In this document: in pieces, positions 907 through 21,002 of the stretch | Layout: each line of letters starts with the position of its first letter | How positions within the stretch are numbered: the stretch's first letter is position 1 | IMG/VR virus record: IMGVR_UViG_2713896907_000001 | Coordinates: 1 to 22,891 of that record | Reading direction: 5' to 3' (one strand) | DNA from: a virus | Lineage: Duplodnaviria > Heunggongvirae > Uroviricota > Caudoviricetes | Length of the DNA: 22,891 nt | The notes under the pieces: generated by a model | The model's database searches: none | Seen by the model: only the letters and a program-made list of their open reading frames with translations | Told to the model about the DNA's origin: nothing | Program-made: the position numbers and the translations under genes

Positions 907-1128
907 TTAGTTATCAAAAAGTCCGTACGTTTCTTCTTCTTCAGGTGTAAGGGGAAGAATCTCTACTCTATCTATAGATACCTTTTCAATGTACCCATGA
1001 GGTCTACTTAAAATTAAAGCTCTCTCATGCCACAGAACTCCAAGAATGTGATACCTTCCAGCATCGCCTTTTACCCTGGCTCTTCCTTTGATTCTTGGCG
1101 GCATAATGCCATATTTTTTCTTTGCCAT
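907..1128 (-). CDS. Hypothetical 73-aa protein, translationally coupled to the upstream antirepressor-like gene
   Basis: ORF MAKKKYGIMPPRIKGRARVKGDAGRYHILGVLWHERALILSRPHGYIEKVSIDRVEILPLTPEEEETYGLFDN; its ATG overlaps the stop of the preceding gene (TAATG at 1126-1130). No family recognised. Confidence 0.45.
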   Translation of the reverse strand: MAKKKYGIMPPRIKGRARVKGDAGRYHILGVLWHERALILSRPHGYIEKVSIDRVEILPLTPEEEETYGLFDN

Positions 1129-1853
1129 TATGCAACATTACTCCCATGAATCAGGTGTTGTAGTGCTTTAACACCTTCCTCATTGTAGCGGAACGCTTCC
1201 ACCTGTTTGCTGGAATGCGCAGATTTATCCAGGAAGAACTTCCCGTACTGCTCAGTTTTGAGGTTGTTTGCGTTAGCAATGCGACCAATCTTGTTGGCCG
1301 TTACTCCAAGCTGCTCTGCAACCTCCCCTGCTGAGTAGTAATGCTCTTCTATTGCCGGAAGAGGTATTGCATTAAAACCAACGAGCGGGTTGATTATACT
1401 TGCTGCCGCTGTCTGCTTTGCCTCCGGCGCAAGATTTGGCATCAGATCGAACAGATTGGTAACAGCTTCAACCGTCATTTTCAATGTTCGCGCTTGACGA
1501 TACTCAACAAGTCCACTCGCTGATTTACCGCTTTTAATGTGCGCTTCCTGCATACTTTCAAGTTTGTCTACAAGTGTTCGGCGAACTGCTTTAGATTCGC
1601 GAGCAGCAACACGAAGCGCCTGCTTGATAGTCATGGAGATAACATCAATGTCAGCCCCGTTTTTCCGACCTACACTTTTTGTGTAGGTCTCGCCTTCCAA
1701 TTCATCCTCAATTTTCTCGATGAATTTGTTGTTACGTACTGATGGCTCTCCACATAACTTGCGAGCTTCATTAACCATCATCAGAAGACTTTGGCTGTCA
1801 ATGGTTTTATCCGTGACAACGGATCCGATGTTTGCTACATTCTTAAAAGTCAT
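1128..1853 (-). CDS. Antirepressor-like protein with C-terminal ANT/KilAC-type DNA-binding region (ant2)
   Basis: Track ORF 1128..1940 begins at a non-ATG codon; the likely start is ATG at 1853 (MTFKNVANIGSV...) preceded by an AAGGAA Shine-Dalgarno. C-terminal segment YYSAGEVAEQLGVTANKIGRIANANNLKTEQYGKFFLDKSAHSSKQVEAFRYNEEGVKAL looks like the helix-turn-helix part of phage antirepressor C-terminal domains. Confidence 0.55.
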   Translation of the reverse strand: MTFKNVANIGSVVTDKTIDSQSLLMMVNEARKLCGEPSVRNNKFIEKIEDELEGETYTKSVGRKNGADIDVISMTIKQALRVAARESKAVRRTLVDKLESMQEAHIKSGKSASGLVEYRQARTLKMTVEAVTNLFDLMPNLAPEAKQTAAASIINPLVGFNAIPLPAIEEHYYSAGEVAEQLGVTANKIGRIANANNLKTEQYGKFFLDKSAHSSKQVEAFRYNEEGVKALQHLIHGSNVA

Positions 1854-1891
1854 TAGGCATTCCTTATGTGGTAGTAAGTGTGTGACATAGG

Positions 1892-1922
1892 CCGCCAGCA
1901 GCACACTGGCGGTTTTCTTTTG
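1892..1922 (+). terminator. Plus-strand intrinsic terminator antisense to the ant1-ant2 junction (candidate end of a sar-like antisense RNA)
   Basis: Perfect 7-bp stem CCGCCAG (1892-1898), 7-nt loop, CTGGCGG (1906-1912), followed on the plus strand by TTTTCTTTTG. No credible plus-strand protein gene ends here. Confidence 0.55.
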
Positions 1923-1940
1923 CGCCGTCCTGTGCACCAA

Positions 1941-2567
1941 TCAATGAATCCATTCCTCGCCGCGAAGTTTTGCCAGCATTGGCTGAGCGTTCTTTACGAC
2001 AAAATTGTTGGTATCAAGATTCTTCATTTCACGAAGAAGTGATTTCTTGGTTTCTTCTGACATGTAGCGAGTCTCATATGCAATATCGTAAATCCTTCCT
2101 GAAAGCTCAGAACCAATTTGCTTCATTCCTGGGTAGATGTGTTTGCACATTTGTTGACTCTTCTCCATCCACAATTGTAAGTAGCAGAGATTAACCAGCT
2201 CTTCGTCAGTGAACTGTTTTGCAATCGGTGAGCATTCTGTCTGCCGATCCAAAATATCCAGCACCCAGCGGCGGAACTCTTTGGCTACCGGAGTGCGAGC
2301 AAACATCGCGATTAGGTGGGCACCGCGTAGTGAGAAAACTCGCACTTTTTTGCGATAATTTCCTGAGGTACTCACTTCGAGTACCTGAGTCATTCCGGCG
2401 CTAAACTCATCGCTATACTTGTTATAAATCATTGTTACTGCACGACTATTTGCGTATTTAAGTGCAGATGCAATATTAGATGATGTAAACCAAACACCAT
2501 GCATATCACGGGTGGGCACCAACTCAACTCCGTGGAAGTTGTAATCTGATTTTGCTACAATATTCAT
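1941..2567 (-). CDS. Antirepressor-like protein, N-terminal (BRO-N/Ant-N type) domain (ant1)
   Basis: Track ORF 1941..2651 would overlap arc; the likely start is ATG at 2567 (MNIVAKSDYNFHGVELVPTRDMHGVWFTSSNIASALKYANSRAVTMIYNKYSDEF...) with an AAGGAAA Shine-Dalgarno. It sits directly downstream of the Arc-like gene, as ant does in the P22 immI region. Confidence 0.55.
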   Translation of the reverse strand: MNIVAKSDYNFHGVELVPTRDMHGVWFTSSNIASALKYANSRAVTMIYNKYSDEFSAGMTQVLEVSTSGNYRKKVRVFSLRGAHLIAMFARTPVAKEFRRWVLDILDRQTECSPIAKQFTDEELVNLCYLQLWMEKSQQMCKHIYPGMKQIGSELSGRIYDIAYETRYMSEETKKSLLREMKNLDTNNFVVKNAQPMLAKLRGEEWIH

Positions 2568-2601
2568 GTTAGTTTCCTTGCATACGGTTACTGACATAGA
2601 G

Positions 2602-2645
2602 GCCCGGTTTGTGTTCGCGCACTGCCGGGCTTCACTATTTTTATT
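2602..2645 (+). terminator. Plus-strand hairpin plus U-rich tract in the arc-ant1 intergenic region (candidate sar-like terminator)
   Basis: GCCCGG (2602-2607) pairs with CCGGGC (2625-2630), with an inner GTG/CAC stem; followed by TTCACTATTTTTATT. Position matches where P22 sar RNA terminates, at the 3' end of arc. Confidence 0.4.
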
Positions 2646-2814
2646 GGGCATTATCTCTTTCCTCTCTCAGGCTTTTAGCCAGTCGCTGCACAATCGCAGA
2701 GTTGATAGAAATTCCATCCATTTCAGCAACACGTCTAATCTCCTCCTTCATTCGCGCTGGCAAACGAAGCTGGAAACTTTGACTTTTACGACCTGTGTAA
2801 AGCACATCTTTCAT
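2641..2814 (-). CDS. arc: Arc-like ribbon-helix-helix repressor
   Basis: From ATG at 2814 (GGGAGG Shine-Dalgarno 7 nt upstream): MKDVLYTGRKSQSFQLRLPARMKEEIRRVAEMDGISINSAIVQRLAKSLREERDNAQ. RHH pattern resembles remembered P22 Arc (PQFNLRWPREVLDLVRKVAEENGRSVNSEIYQRV); divergent from an Mnt-like gene and upstream of ant-like genes. Confidence 0.7.
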   Translation of the reverse strand: MKDVLYTGRKSQSFQLRLPARMKEEIRRVAEMDGISINSAIVQRLAKSLREERDNAQ

Positions 2815-2841
2815 AAGTAATCCTCCCACAATGATACCAAC

Positions 2842-2857
2842 TTGGTTCTAGAACCAA
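2842..2857. promoter_or_regulatory. Perfect 16-bp palindrome TTGGTTCTAGAACCAA in the divergent arc/mnt control region (candidate operator)
   Basis: The sequence at 2842-2857 equals its own reverse complement. It lies in the 96-bp intergenic region between the divergently transcribed Arc-like and Mnt-like genes. A related half-site AAGTTGGT occurs at 2883-2890. Confidence 0.6.
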
Positions 2858-2925
2858 TTTAACACCATTTATTTTGATGTCAAGTTGGTGCTATTGTTTA
2901 GCGAACATCTTTACGTTGAGGTCAT

Positions 2926-3246
2926 ATGAGCAAGTTCCCTAGTCATGAAATGGATAGGTTCAATATCAGGCTTCCTGCAGGAATGCGGGATGCTATAGCT
3001 GAACGAGCAAAACGTAACGGCAGATCAATGAACTCAGAGATTGTTCAGATACTGGAAGATGCCTTGAATGCAGAAAATACACTCGGGGAAATAGCAGATA
3101 AAATCAACAGCGTCTCGGTTCCGCTAAATGTTGATGCGCTAGTTCAACTTCAAGCCCAGGTTATCGCCATGCAAAAAGAAATACAGGAAAAGTTCAGAGA
3201 GCAGAACGAAAAGTTGAGAGAACTGCTAAACAAAAAACCCACCTGA
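2926..3246 (+). CDS. Mnt/Arc-family ribbon-helix-helix repressor (paralog B, in the canonical mnt position)
   Basis: MSKFPSHEMDRFNIRLPAGMRDAIAERAKRNGRSMNSEIVQILEDALNAENTLGEIADKINSV... has the RHH core (FNIRLP ... NGRSMNSEIVQ) followed by a coiled-coil-like C-terminus. Divergent from arc, as mnt is in P22 immI. Confidence 0.7.
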   Translation: MSKFPSHEMDRFNIRLPAGMRDAIAERAKRNGRSMNSEIVQILEDALNAENTLGEIADKINSVSVPLNVDALVQLQAQVIAMQKEIQEKFREQNEKLRELLNKKPT

Positions 3247-3271
3247 AGGTGGGTTAATTTTTGCCTTTTTT
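3231..3271. terminator. Bidirectional intrinsic terminator
   Basis: Stem AACCCACC (3236-3243), loop TGAA, GGTGGGTT (3248-3255). Flanked by an A-run upstream and TTTTTGCCTTTTTT downstream, so a U-tract follows the hairpin on either strand. Separates the immI genes from the upstream moron cluster and late operon. Confidence 0.65.
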
Positions 3272-3345
3272 GGACCATATTGACTACTTATAAAATGAGA
3301 TCAATATTTAATCGCCCAATAACGGGTATATGTTGAGGTATATCA

Positions 3346-3524
3346 TGGCGAAAAAACCAGGTGAAAACACAGGAAAAAACGGCGGAATATACCAAGAAGT
3401 TGGCCCACGCGGCGGTAAGAAAGACAATTTTGCAACCGTCAAGGACAACGAAAGGCTTCCACCAACAACAAAGCCAGGTCATGGCTGGGTATTGGATAAG
3501 CGAACTCCAGACAGCAAAAAGTAA
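3346..3524 (+). CDS. YjzC-like small protein
   Basis: From ATG at 3346 (GAGGT Shine-Dalgarno): MAKKPGENTGKNGGIYQEVGPRGGKKDNFATVKDNERLPPTTKPGHGWVLDKRTPDSKK. The KPGE..G.Y.EVG..G and P.T...H.W pattern resembles the YjzC-like family as I remember it. Has its own upstream region after the bidirectional terminator. Confidence 0.55.
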
Positions 3525-4347: not shown

Positions 4348-6222
4348 TTACTGCTGTGTTGCCTCAGTAGCAAACAGCGGTCTGATGGCATTCGCAGCGT
4401 TATTTAGCGCTCTTTCATAGGCTGGTGTTCCTGCTTTGGTGTTTGCCAAACGAAGAAGCATATTCCTTGCGGCTTTGGACTCATACAAACGCATCATTGC
4501 ACCAAAGCCAGCCTCAAGCCCCATTGATACTCCAAGAGTCGCAGTTGCGCCAATCGTCCTTATCCTGTTGGCTTGTGATTGCCCCGTCTGAGTTACTACA
4601 TTTGCGGTGTCTGACCTTGCTGTTTGCTGTAGAACTTCATGAAGAGCATCAAGCTCTTTCATGTGCTTTCCAGAAAAAATAGTGTTGTAAATTTCACCGC
4701 CTGACTGAGATTTAAGCTTATTAACTTCAGTGATGAACTTGGCTGGAGAGTCACCGGCCTTTTCCGCTATTTTGCTGACGTAAGCTGCACGCATAGCATC
4801 TTTCCCTTTATCATCCAATGCGCTCCAGATTCGTTTCACGTCAGATGGCTTTCTGCTTAATACAACGGTATTTATAAGTTCAGGACTGGCTTCACTGCTT
4901 GCCTTGTTGAGCTTGTTAGCAATGTTTTTATTAAGCACCTTATTATAAACGTTTGCATAATCGGAGTTTGCTTTAAGGTATTTTGCTGCGTCTGATGCAC
5001 CGAGGTTTTTTGCAACTGCGCTACGAAGATCTTTTGACATTGCATTCTCTACCATATTGGTAGCTGCTTTTGCCTGGTTGGGGAAGACCATAGCATCTCC
5101 CTGAACATTGGATCTAAATGCTGTTCTGTGCTGACGCAAGAGATCAAACGTAACATCCAAATCAGTTGCAGGGTTTGCTAATTCTTCACGTAGGTTACGC
5201 AAGGATGTAAGCAGGCTTTGATTGGCAGACGTCCCAAGCCGTTCCTGTCTTGCGATCGCTGTATTCAGAGCATTCATGGTATTTGTGGTATCAACTGCGG
5301 CATTACCCATTTTATTGGTGACGTCATTGATAACAGCGCCAGCGGCATCCTTCCGTCCCCTTAACGTGGTGGTCAGAGATTTCACCACATCATCAGGGTT
5401 GTACTCACCAAAACGGTCAAAATAATTGCTTACCAGCTTACTACGCGTTGCATATTGCTCCGCTCGCTTTGAGCCTGTCCCGAGCAAAGCCCCCTCAGCA
5501 TCCTGAGTAAGTCCGCGAGTGAAAGCATTTTTCGGCGGGATAACATCAGATGTCATTGGTGTCACGCCCATCGATTCTGATGTGGCAATTTTCTTCGCCA
5601 CTTCTGGCGCAATATCACCTTTTATAGCCGTTATTCCACGCCCTATTCCCTTTGCTGCTGCGGAAAGAACACCCTGAGCGGCAAGGTTAACTCCGGCATT
5701 TTTAGCTGCATTTTGTGCGAAATCACCTTTCTGATTTGCGGCCTCTGCCAGTGATCCAATAGCCATGCTTCCTGCCGTTCCAACTCCTGGAACTAAATAC
5801 CCGCCAATTGTTTCTCCAGCTTGAGCGTAGGGGTCTGTCGGTCTGTCTACTGGACGATAGACATCATCCAATACTTTTGGCCCACCAAGCCCCTGACTGA
5901 TTGCATTAATCAGACTTGCGCCACCCTGCAATACGTCAAATGGTATGTTTACCAGACCACGACCAGCCTGTTCTGCAATTTGCCCTGCACTTTGACCACC
6001 AGTGAGCCAATCGCCAGCTTGTTGCATCAATGATGGTTCTTCTTTCTGCTGCTGAGGCGGAGGGTATGCTGCATAAAACTGATCTCTTGCTTCAGCCCAT
6101 TTGTCACCAGCCTTAGGGGCAACAACCTCATCAAAATATTGCGCTTGAGCCTGTGCTTTCTGTTCTTCAGTTAACGCCTGATACTGTGGAGAAGCGATAA
6201 CATCTTTCCATGCTTTAGCCAT
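4348..6222 (-). CDS. Ejection (injection) protein, P22 gp16-like
   Basis: 624-aa ORF in the gp16 position, last of the 14-7-20-16 ejection block; size close to P22 gp16; Ala/Gly-rich low-complexity internal region typical of these proteins. Confidence 0.75.
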
Positions 6223-13788: not shown

Positions 13789-15987
13789 TTACTGCTGTGG
13801 TTGTTGCTGGGTTGATTTTTGCAGGATGCTGCTGATGTCCATTCGTTGTGCATGGCCCTGTGCCTGACTTTTCAGGACAAGCTCTGCATCAGCACGGGCA
13901 TTGTCTCCTTGCTGTTGCTGGAACTGTCCGAGCAGTTTCAGCGCCTCACGGATATCAGATTTTTGCTGGCTATCGGCAGATGCGAGGATTTTCACAACAT
14001 TTGCCGCAGCAACCTGAGCATCCGTCTGTGCCTGGAATGCTTTAACCTGAATGGCTGCCTGTTCGTTCTGCGCTTTCTGCAATTCAGCCTGACCAGCAAG
14101 AAGCTGACCTTGCGCTGCAACCATAGCCGGATCTGGCTGACTGGCCTGTTGTTGTTTCGCCTGTTCAACCATCTGCTGTTCTTCAGGCGTTCTCGGCTTG
14201 ATAACGCCAGACAGAAGCAACTGATTGCGGTTGTATTCTTTAAGGTCGTCCATCCCTTCGCCGTCCATATTGTCGAGAATCATCGACGATACAAGGTCGT
14301 GCTTCGGCGTTCCTGGTGGGATAAGTGCCAGCATGGAAAGTAACGACTTAACCGTTGCATCACGGCGAGTAGCGAACGACTGACCGACATCGACAGTCAC
14401 TTCATAGTTACCCTGCGAAAGGTCGTTAAGCGCGATAACCTGCCCTGTCTGACGGTCAACCACTTCACCAGTCATCAGCGCCACGTCATCGCTGCCATCC
14501 TCATTAACGATGCGCATTGGCGTATCGCTGCCATAGACTTCACGAGCCATAGAAAGCCACACGACGCCAGCACGGCGCATGGATTTAGCCATGTTGTCCA
14601 TGTAGATATAGGACTGCGTGTCCATCCGATTAAAGATGCTATCAACGGTATCGGTAGCGACGTTGCTCGGCATGTTCTCAAGCTGCGACGCACCTGTAAT
14701 TTGCTGAATAGCCGTTCCGGTGTACTGCAATAGCCCGGCAAGAGCAGGAGGCATTTGTGTCGGAGGTGTCCAGCCAGCAACCTGAGCCTCTGAAATGACC
14801 GTTCCGTTTTTGTCCTTCTTGCTGGTCATGGGAAGAACTGCAGGTCTTTTCTTATTCCTCTCTGCCCAGTGATTCATTAATGGACCGGGAATGAAATCAA
14901 CATCCACGATAGGAATGCCATCACCGCCAGCCTGAGTAGCGTTATCTGCAATCATGGAAACCATCAGGTTCTCAAGACGCTGTGCATCCATCGCTTTTGC
15001 TGCGTGGCCTTCGATTCGCTCCTGATTATCAACAAATGAGCGACGCCCATATACCGGGATGAGAGGAATATGTTCGCCAGGAATACGCTTCGGTTCTTCC
15101 AGCCATTCAGCGCCAGAAAGAAGACCGCAATAAACTCGGCGTTTCTTCACCGTTCTCTCGCCAATCAGTTCGAATGCACCATCGGTCAGCTCGTCGACAA
15201 TATCTTTGATTTGCTCTTCATCATAGATTGCCGTTTCTCCGCTAACAGGGTTGCGCCACGCCGTGAGCTTCACCTTCTCTATGCGAACTTCGTAGTAACG
15301 TCCAACATAGATGGCGTCAGGCGTTGACCAGTCATACTGAGTACCAGTGTCATCCCGAGAAAGGCTTGCCGCAATGGAATCAGGGTATTCAGCCTCGAAC
15401 GCTTTAGGCGTCATGGAGAACATTTCCATAGCCCACATAGCATCAGAGCGGTCATATTGTTTGCTGTCCTGATCGAAGAAGACGCATGTCGCCGGGTCGT
15501 AAACAGGAAGAATGCTGATGCGTCGCTGCTCGTTACTTGGGTCCATTTCATCTTCGTAATCGGCACACATGCGGAAACAACCGAATCCGCCCGTTACAGC
15601 ATCATCAAATGCGTTATCACACGCTTCGCCACCTGATGTTTCCTGATAGTCAGCGCGGAATTTGCCGTTCATCTTTTCGGCTAACGCTTCCGATGCCTTG
15701 TCATCCTTCGGCCTGAATTTAACGCTGATGCGATTCTGTCGATACTCGCCAATGATGCGATCACATTCACGGGCAATCTTATTCAGTTCAAAGCGCGGGT
15801 AATGCTCAAACCTGCCTTCATCAAATGAGTAACCAGCGTTTGTGCTGCCTTCCCACTGTGCGCCGGATACCCGGACGAAACGTTGAGCCTCAATAATCTG
15901 CTCACGCATATCCTGCGTTGCTGACCAGGCATTATCAAAGTTGCACAGCACCTTGCGATGCCAGTCAGTCATCTTTTTTTCTGCCAT
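13789..15987 (-). CDS. Portal protein, P22 gp1-like
   Basis: 732-aa ORF. Segments such as KRRRVYCGLLSGAEWLEEPKRIPGEHIPLIPVYG and the C-terminal Gln-rich helical region ending DISSILQKSTQQQPQQ align with remembered P22 portal (KRRRVYKSIITCT...AGEHIPIVPVFG; long C-terminal barrel). Confidence 0.9.
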   Translation of the reverse strand: MAEKKMTDWHRKVLCNFDNAWSATQDMREQIIEAQRFVRVSGAQWEGSTNAGYSFDEGRFEHYPRFELNKIARECDRIIGEYRQNRISVKFRPKDDKASEALAEKMNGKFRADYQETSGGEACDNAFDDAVTGGFGCFRMCADYEDEMDPSNEQRRISILPVYDPATCVFFDQDSKQYDRSDAMWAMEMFSMTPKAFEAEYPDSIAASLSRDDTGTQYDWSTPDAIYVGRYYEVRIEKVKLTAWRNPVSGETAIYDEEQIKDIVDELTDGAFELIGERTVKKRRVYCGLLSGAEWLEEPKRIPGEHIPLIPVYGRRSFVDNQERIEGHAAKAMDAQRLENLMVSMIADNATQAGGDGIPIVDVDFIPGPLMNHWAERNKKRPAVLPMTSKKDKNGTVISEAQVAGWTPPTQMPPALAGLLQYTGTAIQQITGASQLENMPSNVATDTVDSIFNRMDTQSYIYMDNMAKSMRRAGVVWLSMAREVYGSDTPMRIVNEDGSDDVALMTGEVVDRQTGQVIALNDLSQGNYEVTVDVGQSFATRRDATVKSLLSMLALIPPGTPKHDLVSSMILDNMDGEGMDDLKEYNRNQLLLSGVIKPRTPEEQQMVEQAKQQQASQPDPAMVAAQGQLLAGQAELQKAQNEQAAIQVKAFQAQTDAQVAAANVVKILASADSQQKSDIREALKLLGQFQQQQGDNARADAELVLKSQAQGHAQRMDISSILQKSTQQQPQQ

Positions 15988-20846: not shown

Positions 20847-20922
20847 TGGTGCTGGTTAACGGACTTGAACCGCTACCCATTCGCTTACAAGGCGACTGCT
20901 CTACCATTGGAGCTAAACCAGC
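20847..20922 (-). tRNA. tRNA-Thr (anticodon UGU)
   Basis: Minus strand GCTGGTTTAGCTCCAATGGTAGAGCAGTCGCCTTGTAAGCGAATGGGTAGCGGTTCAAGTCCGTTAACCAGCACCA folds as a 76-nt cloverleaf: perfect 7-bp acceptor and 4-bp D stem, anticodon loop CTTGTAA, T-loop TTCAAGT, encoded CCA. One G-A at the base of the anticodon stem. Confidence 0.75.
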
Positions 20923-20927
20923 ATATT

Positions 20928-21002
20928 TGGCGGGACAGCGTGGACTCGAACCACGATAAGAAGGTTAACAGCCTTCCGTAATGACCTTTATACGACTGAC
21001 CC
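20928..21002 (-). tRNA. tRNA-Asn-like (anticodon GUU), possibly slightly degenerate
   Basis: Minus strand GGGTCAGTCGTATAAAGGTCATTACGGAAGGCTGTTAACCTTCTTATCGTGGTTCGAGTCCACGCTGTCCCGCCA: perfect anticodon stem GAAGG/CCTTC, loop CTGTTAA, T-arm CGTGG-TTCGAGT-CCACG, encoded CCA. One U-U mismatch in the acceptor stem and a 3-bp D stem. Only 5 nt from tRNA-Thr. Confidence 0.55.

Follow-up and report, generated by a model that had tools for sequence, protein, structure and literature searches.

In phages P1 and P7, a small antisense RNA, c4, prevents synthesis of the antirepressor (ant). It arises by processing of a longer same-strand transcript and has its target upstream, acting there in trans through the coupling of icd and ant; it has no known relationship in sequence or position to the element described here. 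The closest described system is sar of phage P22, an antisense RNA that represses ant and regularly forms part of immI in P22-like phages, where the late promoter, too, drives transcription of arc and ant (PMC2629481, PMC12111858, PMC3134472, PMC13397905). The genes arc, ant and sar have been regarded as a common set in these phages (PMC2629481, PMC12111858). For the mode of action of P22 sar we relied on its GenBank annotation and on the four secondary citations above. In the P22 record (BK000583), sar occupies positions 15021-15090 and is annotated as a discrete RNA of about 70 nt. Its promoter is placed within ant, at 15097-15125, and its terminator at 15021-15058, directly next to the arc stop codon. 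The sar RNAs annotated in other P22-like phages, for example epsilon34 and UAB_Phi20, lie in the same immI context as the element studied here, the "ant moron" of a P22-like genome.

The stretch of DNA that we analysed, called the window below, is 22,891 nucleotides long, and its left 6 kb form an immI ("ant moron") region of a P22-like prophage. This region is bounded by a P22 gp16-like DNA-transfer gene (4348-6222, minus strand) and by the end of the tailspike gene. The ORF listing and family scans give an operon on the minus strand in the order arc, ant1, ant2 and a 73-aa ORF, with the following genes and control elements:

1128-1853, minus strand: ant2, encoding a second antirepressor of 241 aa (PHROG phrog_1726 anti-repressor, 2.2e-102)
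1941-2567, minus strand: ant1, encoding an antirepressor of 208 aa (Pfam Bro-N, 1.9e-10, and P22AR_C, 2.7e-14; PHROG anti-repressor Ant, 1.9e-53)
2641-2814, minus strand: arc homologue of 57 aa, the first gene of the operon (Pfam Arc, 9.3e-12)
2856-2883, minus strand: Pant-like promoter, TTGACA-16-TAAATT, found by a promoter scan and assigned its putative function from the P22 layout
2926-3246, plus strand: divergent gene for an Arc/Mnt-family repressor in the mnt position (Pfam Arc, 1.6e-20; P22 mnt has the same position)

The operon differs from that of P22 in having a second antirepressor gene, whose product gave no match in the Pfam scan, and in the type of the first, a 208-aa Bro-N/P22AR_C protein compared with the 300-aa Ant of P22. 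Among isolated phages, Escherichia phage JEP4 (Lederbergvirus) is closest, with 98% identity over 1100-2647, and the closest complete E. coli genomes are 95-97% identical. Several further features of the region were seen in passing. An inverted repeat at 2830-2869 (20-nt arms, 75% complementary, core TTGGTTCTAGAACCAA) overlaps the -10 element of the Pant-like promoter and may be an Arc/Mnt operator. Three genes of the Arc/Mnt ribbon-helix-helix family share this one immunity region (554-892, plus; 2641-2814, minus; 2926-3246, plus); the one at 554-892 is convergent with the ant operon at its far end, beside the tailspike gene, and is by eye nearest in sequence to P22 Mnt. At the end of the mnt-like gene, the symmetric hairpin AACCCACC-TGAA-GGTGGGTT at 3236-3255 is accompanied by a T run on either strand and resembles a terminator that works in both directions. 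Adjacent genes for tRNA-Thr(TGT) and tRNA-Asn(GTT) lie at 20847-21002 on the minus strand, distant from the element described next.

Between arc and ant1, and reaching into the first codons of ant1, the plus strand carries the parts of a predicted sar-like transcription unit:

2532-2537, plus strand: weak -35-like GTGGAA with an 18-bp spacer, read from the sequence; the alternative TGGAAG at 2533-2538 has a spacer of 17 bp
2553-2561, plus strand: Psar-like extended -10 element TGcTACAAT (TG at 2553-2554, TACAAT at 2556-2561) inside ant1 codons 3-5, aligning with the annotated P22 Psar TGcTATACT
2565-2567, plus strand: CAT, the complement of the ant1 start codon, read from the sequence
2565-2579, minus strand: the predicted target, that is the ant1 Shine-Dalgarno sequence AAGGAAA (2573-2579) and, 5 nt after it, the AUG (2565-2567), read from the sequence
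2568-2642, plus strand: predicted sar-like antisense RNA (about 71-76 nt) that perfectly complements the entire arc-ant1 spacer, its start placed from the P22 sar annotation
2568-2595, plus strand: 5' stem-loop of the minimum-free-energy fold, in which GUUAGU (2568-2573) pairs with ACUGAC (2590-2595)
2599-2633, plus strand: GC-rich 3' hairpin (terminator stem) with 10 outer pairs and a 4-bp inner stem, from the fold and from covariation
2638-2642, plus strand: U tract (T5), the predicted end of the RNA, read from the sequence

A sequence-only reading of this DNA had proposed a sar-like RNA at this site on the basis of a TACAAT hexamer just inside ant1, a weak -35 element, and a hairpin with a U-rich tract at the 3' end of arc. 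All of these are present, and that reading had overlooked the TG at 2553-2554. Because this dinucleotide makes the -10 element extended, the poor -35 element is tolerable; the -35 element of P22 Psar is equally poor (GTGTTA at 17 bp). GTGGAA recurs at the -35 position in several divergent relatives, which says little about promoter function because the same motif also encodes conserved Ant residues. The arc-ant1 spacer is 73 nt long and is filled on the plus strand by the predicted RNA. The further claim, that the transcript would be fully complementary to both the ant1 Shine-Dalgarno sequence and the start codon, held for the former, which is covered completely; the start codon is abutted and not included if transcription begins at G2568, as the analogy to P22 suggests. 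In the fold, the anti-Shine-Dalgarno UUUCCUU (2573-2579) is situated at the 3' edge of the 5' stem and within the loop. At the other end, the T run starts 4 nt past the stem, as it does in nearly all relatives, and runs into the complement of the arc stop codon (2641-2643); P22 sar ends at the equivalent point.

Taken by itself, the motif TGnTAnnnT-N3-CAT has no significance, as it matched once in the window and at least once in 57 of 100 shuffled sequences. A generic promoter and terminator scan of the window called neither the ant1 antisense promoter nor its terminator; the same scan of the P22 record also missed the annotated Psar promoter and the sar terminator, and the negative result therefore carries no weight. 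A plus-strand ORF at 2566-2820 (84 aa), antisense to arc and with its ATG overlapping the ant1 start codon, was considered and rejected as most probably not a gene, because the ATG is absent in many relatives (those of the CATTGTT type) and because the predicted RNA starts after the AU.

We then compared the element with P22 sar directly. On the sar strand, P22 reads ...TGCTATACTATTCAT/GTTGGTTTTTCTCCAAGGATTTACTGACAACCGAAGCCC...GGGGCTTCAACTTT and the window reads ...TGCTACAATATTCAT/GTTAGTTTCCTTGCATACGGTTACTGACATAGAGGCCC...CCGGGCTTCACTATTTTT. In a global alignment, 50 of 68 positions were identical (73.5%, z = 7.8), a score reached by none of 1000 shuffles, and inclusion of the -10/promoter part raised the values to 74.4% identity and z = 11.2. 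The register of the promoter is also that of P22, since in both the extended -10 element is followed after 3 nt by CAT and after 6 nt by the first base of the RNA, which for the window is a predicted one. Like P22 sar (RF00262), the window element is antisense to the arc-ant spacer over the ribosome-binding site of ant, has its promoter within the first ant codons, convergent with Pant and with a TGn-extended -10 element, and would yield a transcript running from the base beside the AUG to the arc stop codon. Both RNAs have a 5' stem-loop holding the anti-Shine-Dalgarno sequence and a GC-rich 3' hairpin, the 5' stem consisting of 6 bp (GUUAGU in the window or GUUGGU, with ACUGAC) and being followed by a short spacer and the long GC-rich hairpin. 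They differ in the 3' stem, which in P22 is a continuous helix of 14 bp and in the window is interrupted by an internal loop and continued by the inner 4-bp stem, and in the U tract, where the UUUUU of the window is better than the CUUU of P22, whose weak T tract (AACTTT) follows the stem. The likeness to P22 sar, argued from the sequence alone by placement and size (a predicted 71-76 nt compared with about 68-70 nt), is further supported by identity, promoter register and fold, and also by the conservation described below.

The curated Rfam model for sar, RF00262, gave no match on the window at its gathering threshold (43 bits), and none at E <= 10 on positions 1700-3400; P22 sar itself, used as a positive control, scored 97.8 bits. 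When the model was applied to 20 relatives fetched through their Arc protein, it matched the element in eight of them at the same position, two of these above 43 bits (L069 with 53.4 and L074 with 44.6 bits) and the other six at 28-38 bits. The matched loci, at about 1672-1747 on the minus strand of the respective sequences, are L069, L074, L079, L043, L034, L049, L040 and L041. Because RF00262 scores relatives from the same alignment above its threshold, the window element is tied to sar through these intermediates. The curated model thus appears too narrow, recognising part of an Arc-linked continuum of sar sequences on which the window copy lies beyond its reach. Judged at the level of sequence, the window element falls outside formal RF00262 membership, but has detectable homology to sar and its architecture. 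A covariance model of our own, built from 37 relatives together with the window sequence, scored the window at 76.7 bits, a value that is circular; it found no second copy of the ant1 element in the window. The antitoxin RNA SymR (RF01809), which is also a cis-antisense RNA across a ribosome-binding site, gave the only overlapping Rfam match, at 2565-2636 on the plus strand; its 21.8 bits (E = 0.3) are far below the threshold of 61 and the context differs, and we regard it as a chance structural resemblance.

Conservation was assessed in 80 loci from viral contigs that were fetched with the Arc protein alone and not with the RNA (81-100% amino-acid identity). Downstream of the arc stop codon these loci gave 54 distinct sequences, of which 53 carry the module: a -10-like hexamer is separated, usually by 3 nt, from CAT, after which come a 5' stem-loop holding the anti-Shine-Dalgarno sequence, a GC-rich hairpin, 4 nt and TTTTTA. 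The TTA of this last motif is the complement of the arc stop codon, and xxxxTTTTTA is near-invariant among the relatives. The sole locus of the 54 that does not carry the module, L038, has unrelated sequence after arc. All 51 aligned sequences fold into the two-hairpin shape. The hexamer occurs in eight forms (TACAAT in 19, TATACT in 13, TACACT in 10 and TAAACT in 5 sequences, and four singletons), and throughout these variants the pattern TAnnnT (T1, A2 and T6) is invariant in 51/51; TGn precedes the hexamer in 33 of the 51.

Since the hexamer lies within ant codons, we considered whether the protein could account for its conservation. A-11 and T-7, the two most critical bases of the -10 element, both fall on non-synonymous codon positions, and protein constraint could thus contribute to their invariance. 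T-12, in turn, corresponds to the third position of a Val, Ile or Leu codon, for which only GTA, ATA and TTA occur; the Ser codon overlapping the -10 element is always AGY and never TCN. A fixed A at a synonymous third position together with the exclusive use of AGY suggests constraint at the DNA level. In two loci (L065 and L070) the ATG lies 3 nt nearer to the -10 element, and the distance from the -10 element to the RNA body is unchanged (6 nt to the first base). Outside the viral contigs, 77 of 5,426 complete E. coli genomes contain the window's variant of the ant1 element at 90% identity or more. In those of these genomes that were inspected, annotation around the element is confined to the flanking CDSs, and the records of JEP4, KP12 and Oslo contain no annotated RNA feature at it.

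The predicted RNA 2568-2645 folds into two hairpins with -33.3 kcal/mol (z = -6.2), and none of 200 shuffled sequences was as stable. Across the relatives, the consensus 9-bp terminator stem obtained with RNAalifold had no unpaired cell among the 333 of 37 distinct sequences, a count that overstates the number of independent events because many of the comparison sequences are closely related prophages. Compensatory double changes were found at 5 of its 9 pairs, one of which occurs as six pair types. The whole two-helix structure was 93.8% paired, compared with 33-54% when the partners were slid by 1-3 columns, and its observed pairing or covariation score was reached by none of 500 shuffles. 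RNAalifold on the MAFFT alignment recovered the 3' stem only and not the 5' stem, whose column-wise covariation is weak (84% paired). Every one of the 51 relatives is nevertheless predicted to form this stem, in two or more registers that are not homologous (GUUAGU/ACUGAC and GUCGA/UCGAU), which explains why it appears in the folds of single sequences and not in column covariation.

A hairpin on one strand is mirrored on the other, and the same structures could instead act in the arc-ant1 mRNA on the minus strand, as a processing or stability site or in translational coupling, with no antisense RNA being made. Indeed, the complementary strand of 2568-2645 also forms both hairpins (-19.5 kcal/mol, z = -1.95). 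The target in P22 ant mRNA is likewise described as structured, as far as the title of a 1997 paper cited in PMC2629481 conveys, and the two roles are not mutually exclusive. However, in every one of 37 variants the antisense strand folded more stably than the mRNA strand (mean -29.5 versus -19.3 kcal/mol, z -4.5 versus -2.5), and the 5' domain alone showed the same preference (mean z of -1.9 versus -0.5). Of 842 predicted pairs, 151 (18%) are G-U pairs and would turn into A-C mismatches in the mRNA, and on the plus strand every cell of the terminator stem is paired. The better fold of the antisense strand and the G-U pairs indicate that a plus-strand RNA, and not solely the arc-ant1 mRNA, is under selection. 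Only on the plus strand, moreover, do the T run and the conserved -10 element make sense, so that a role confined to the mRNA strikes us as improbable.

The hairpin and T run might also do no more than terminate longer plus-strand transcripts arriving from the left, TACAAT then being a by-product of ant1 codons. Possible sources of such transcripts exist in the promoter inside ant2 (1813-1841, described below) and the Arc-family gene at 554-892, and the shuffles gave the bare -10 motif no significance of its own. Against this, a canonical plus-strand terminator at 1889-1915 already stands between these sources and the site, TAnnnT and its 6-nt distance persist despite the shifted ATG of L065 and L070 and despite differing Ant N-termini, and the P22 homologue is annotated as a discrete RNA; we therefore give this explanation little credence. 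That the site is an ordinary intergenic hairpin which happens to lie beside an AT-rich hexamer is the least probable reading. The frequency of the motif in shuffled sequences and the missing Rfam sar match on the window speak for it, but the significant homology to sar, the conservation and covariation over dozens of divergent loci and the Rfam matches on relatives speak against it, and chance is effectively refuted.

We are thus led to the reading that positions 2568 to about 2642 on the plus strand very probably encode a divergent homologue of P22 sar, set in an immI-type region (mnt-like/Pant/arc/ant1/ant2) of a P22-like prophage. From the features described we infer transcription, termination, pairing and repression of ant1 in the following way. 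A sigma-70 promoter with an extended -10 element (2553-2561) in the first ant1 codons would fire against the arc-ant operon, either constitutively or in a manner sensitive to Pant. By analogy to P22, transcription would start at about G2568, and it would terminate at the hairpin 2599-2633 and the U tract 2638-2642, at the arc stop codon; the product would be about 71-76 nt long and have two stem-loops. This RNA would pair with the ant1 leader, occlude the Shine-Dalgarno sequence and so prevent the synthesis of Ant1. The block would extend to ant1 on read-through transcripts that are beyond the reach of protein repressors acting at Pant; since late read-through on the minus strand carries ant1 and could not be stopped by such repressors, a block at the level of RNA would be needed.

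The spacer between ant1 and ant2 (87 nt) has the same plus-strand layout as the ant1 module, with the following parts:

1813-1841, plus strand: predicted antisense promoter inside ant2 codons, with GTGACA (1813-1818), a 17-bp spacer ending in TGc, and TACATT (1836-1841); the scan gave 9/12 matches with TG present
1848-1920, plus strand: predicted antisense RNA (about 73 nt) spanning the start codon and the Shine-Dalgarno sequence of ant2, from the layout of promoter and terminator
1851-1853 and 1860-1865, plus strand: CAT of ant2 and the anti-Shine-Dalgarno TTCCTT, read from the sequence
1889-1915, plus strand: hairpin followed by TTTTCTTTT, together a canonical terminator in the promoter and terminator scan

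In the loci analysed, the strict promoter pattern had 97 occurrences (40 distinct), every one of which was followed by CAT, an anti-Shine-Dalgarno sequence and a GC hairpin with a T run. When an unbiased set of upstream regions was instead collected through Ant2 homologues, fetched by protein at 69-100% identity, 37 of 40 distinct regions contained the pattern, and the three exceptions have a replaced N-terminus. The hairpin of this module was 99.5% paired over 27 variants, with compensatory changes at 4 of 8 pairs, for example GCCGCCAG/CTGGCGG versus GCCAATAG/CTATTGGC.

We asked whether this second module is a paralogue of sar, and rejected the idea: a global alignment gave z = -0.5, and our own sar covariance model did not match it even with filters off. 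As neither alignment nor model matches, the module constitutes a separate family with the same layout. It gave no Rfam match at E <= 10 (window 1700-3400) and has no annotation in three isolated phages that carry it, and its varying upstream flanks indicate that it travels with ant2. The ant2 antisense module thus appears to be conserved and undescribed. Taking both modules together, we consider it somewhat probable that the operon has two separate cis-antisense RNAs, one per antirepressor gene: the divergent sar over ant1 and a second RNA (about 1848-1920, plus strand) from a family that Rfam does not match and that is unannotated in the records examined, with a canonical terminator and a GTGACA-17-TGnTAnnnT promoter that is strongly conserved, a portable cassette that accompanies ant2-type genes in enterobacterial prophages. 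Both RNAs would silence antirepressor translation on late-operon read-through that Arc and Mnt cannot block.

Control of the antirepressor decides whether a P22-like prophage remains silent or is induced, including by a superinfecting relative. The sar switch itself is already known, and the ant1 element is very probably a divergent, unannotated member of this known family, which annotation pipelines that rely on RF00262 leave unannotated. Our comparison implies that the sar mechanism reaches well beyond the near-P22 sequences recognised by the Rfam model, with sar-type elements covering Arc-Ant modules that contain different types of antirepressor in phages of E. coli, Salmonella and Klebsiella. 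Since a cis-antisense RNA depends on exact complementarity to its target, each of the sequence classes seen here may correspond to an immI specificity of its own. The ant2 module, if confirmed, would add a new family of phage small RNAs.
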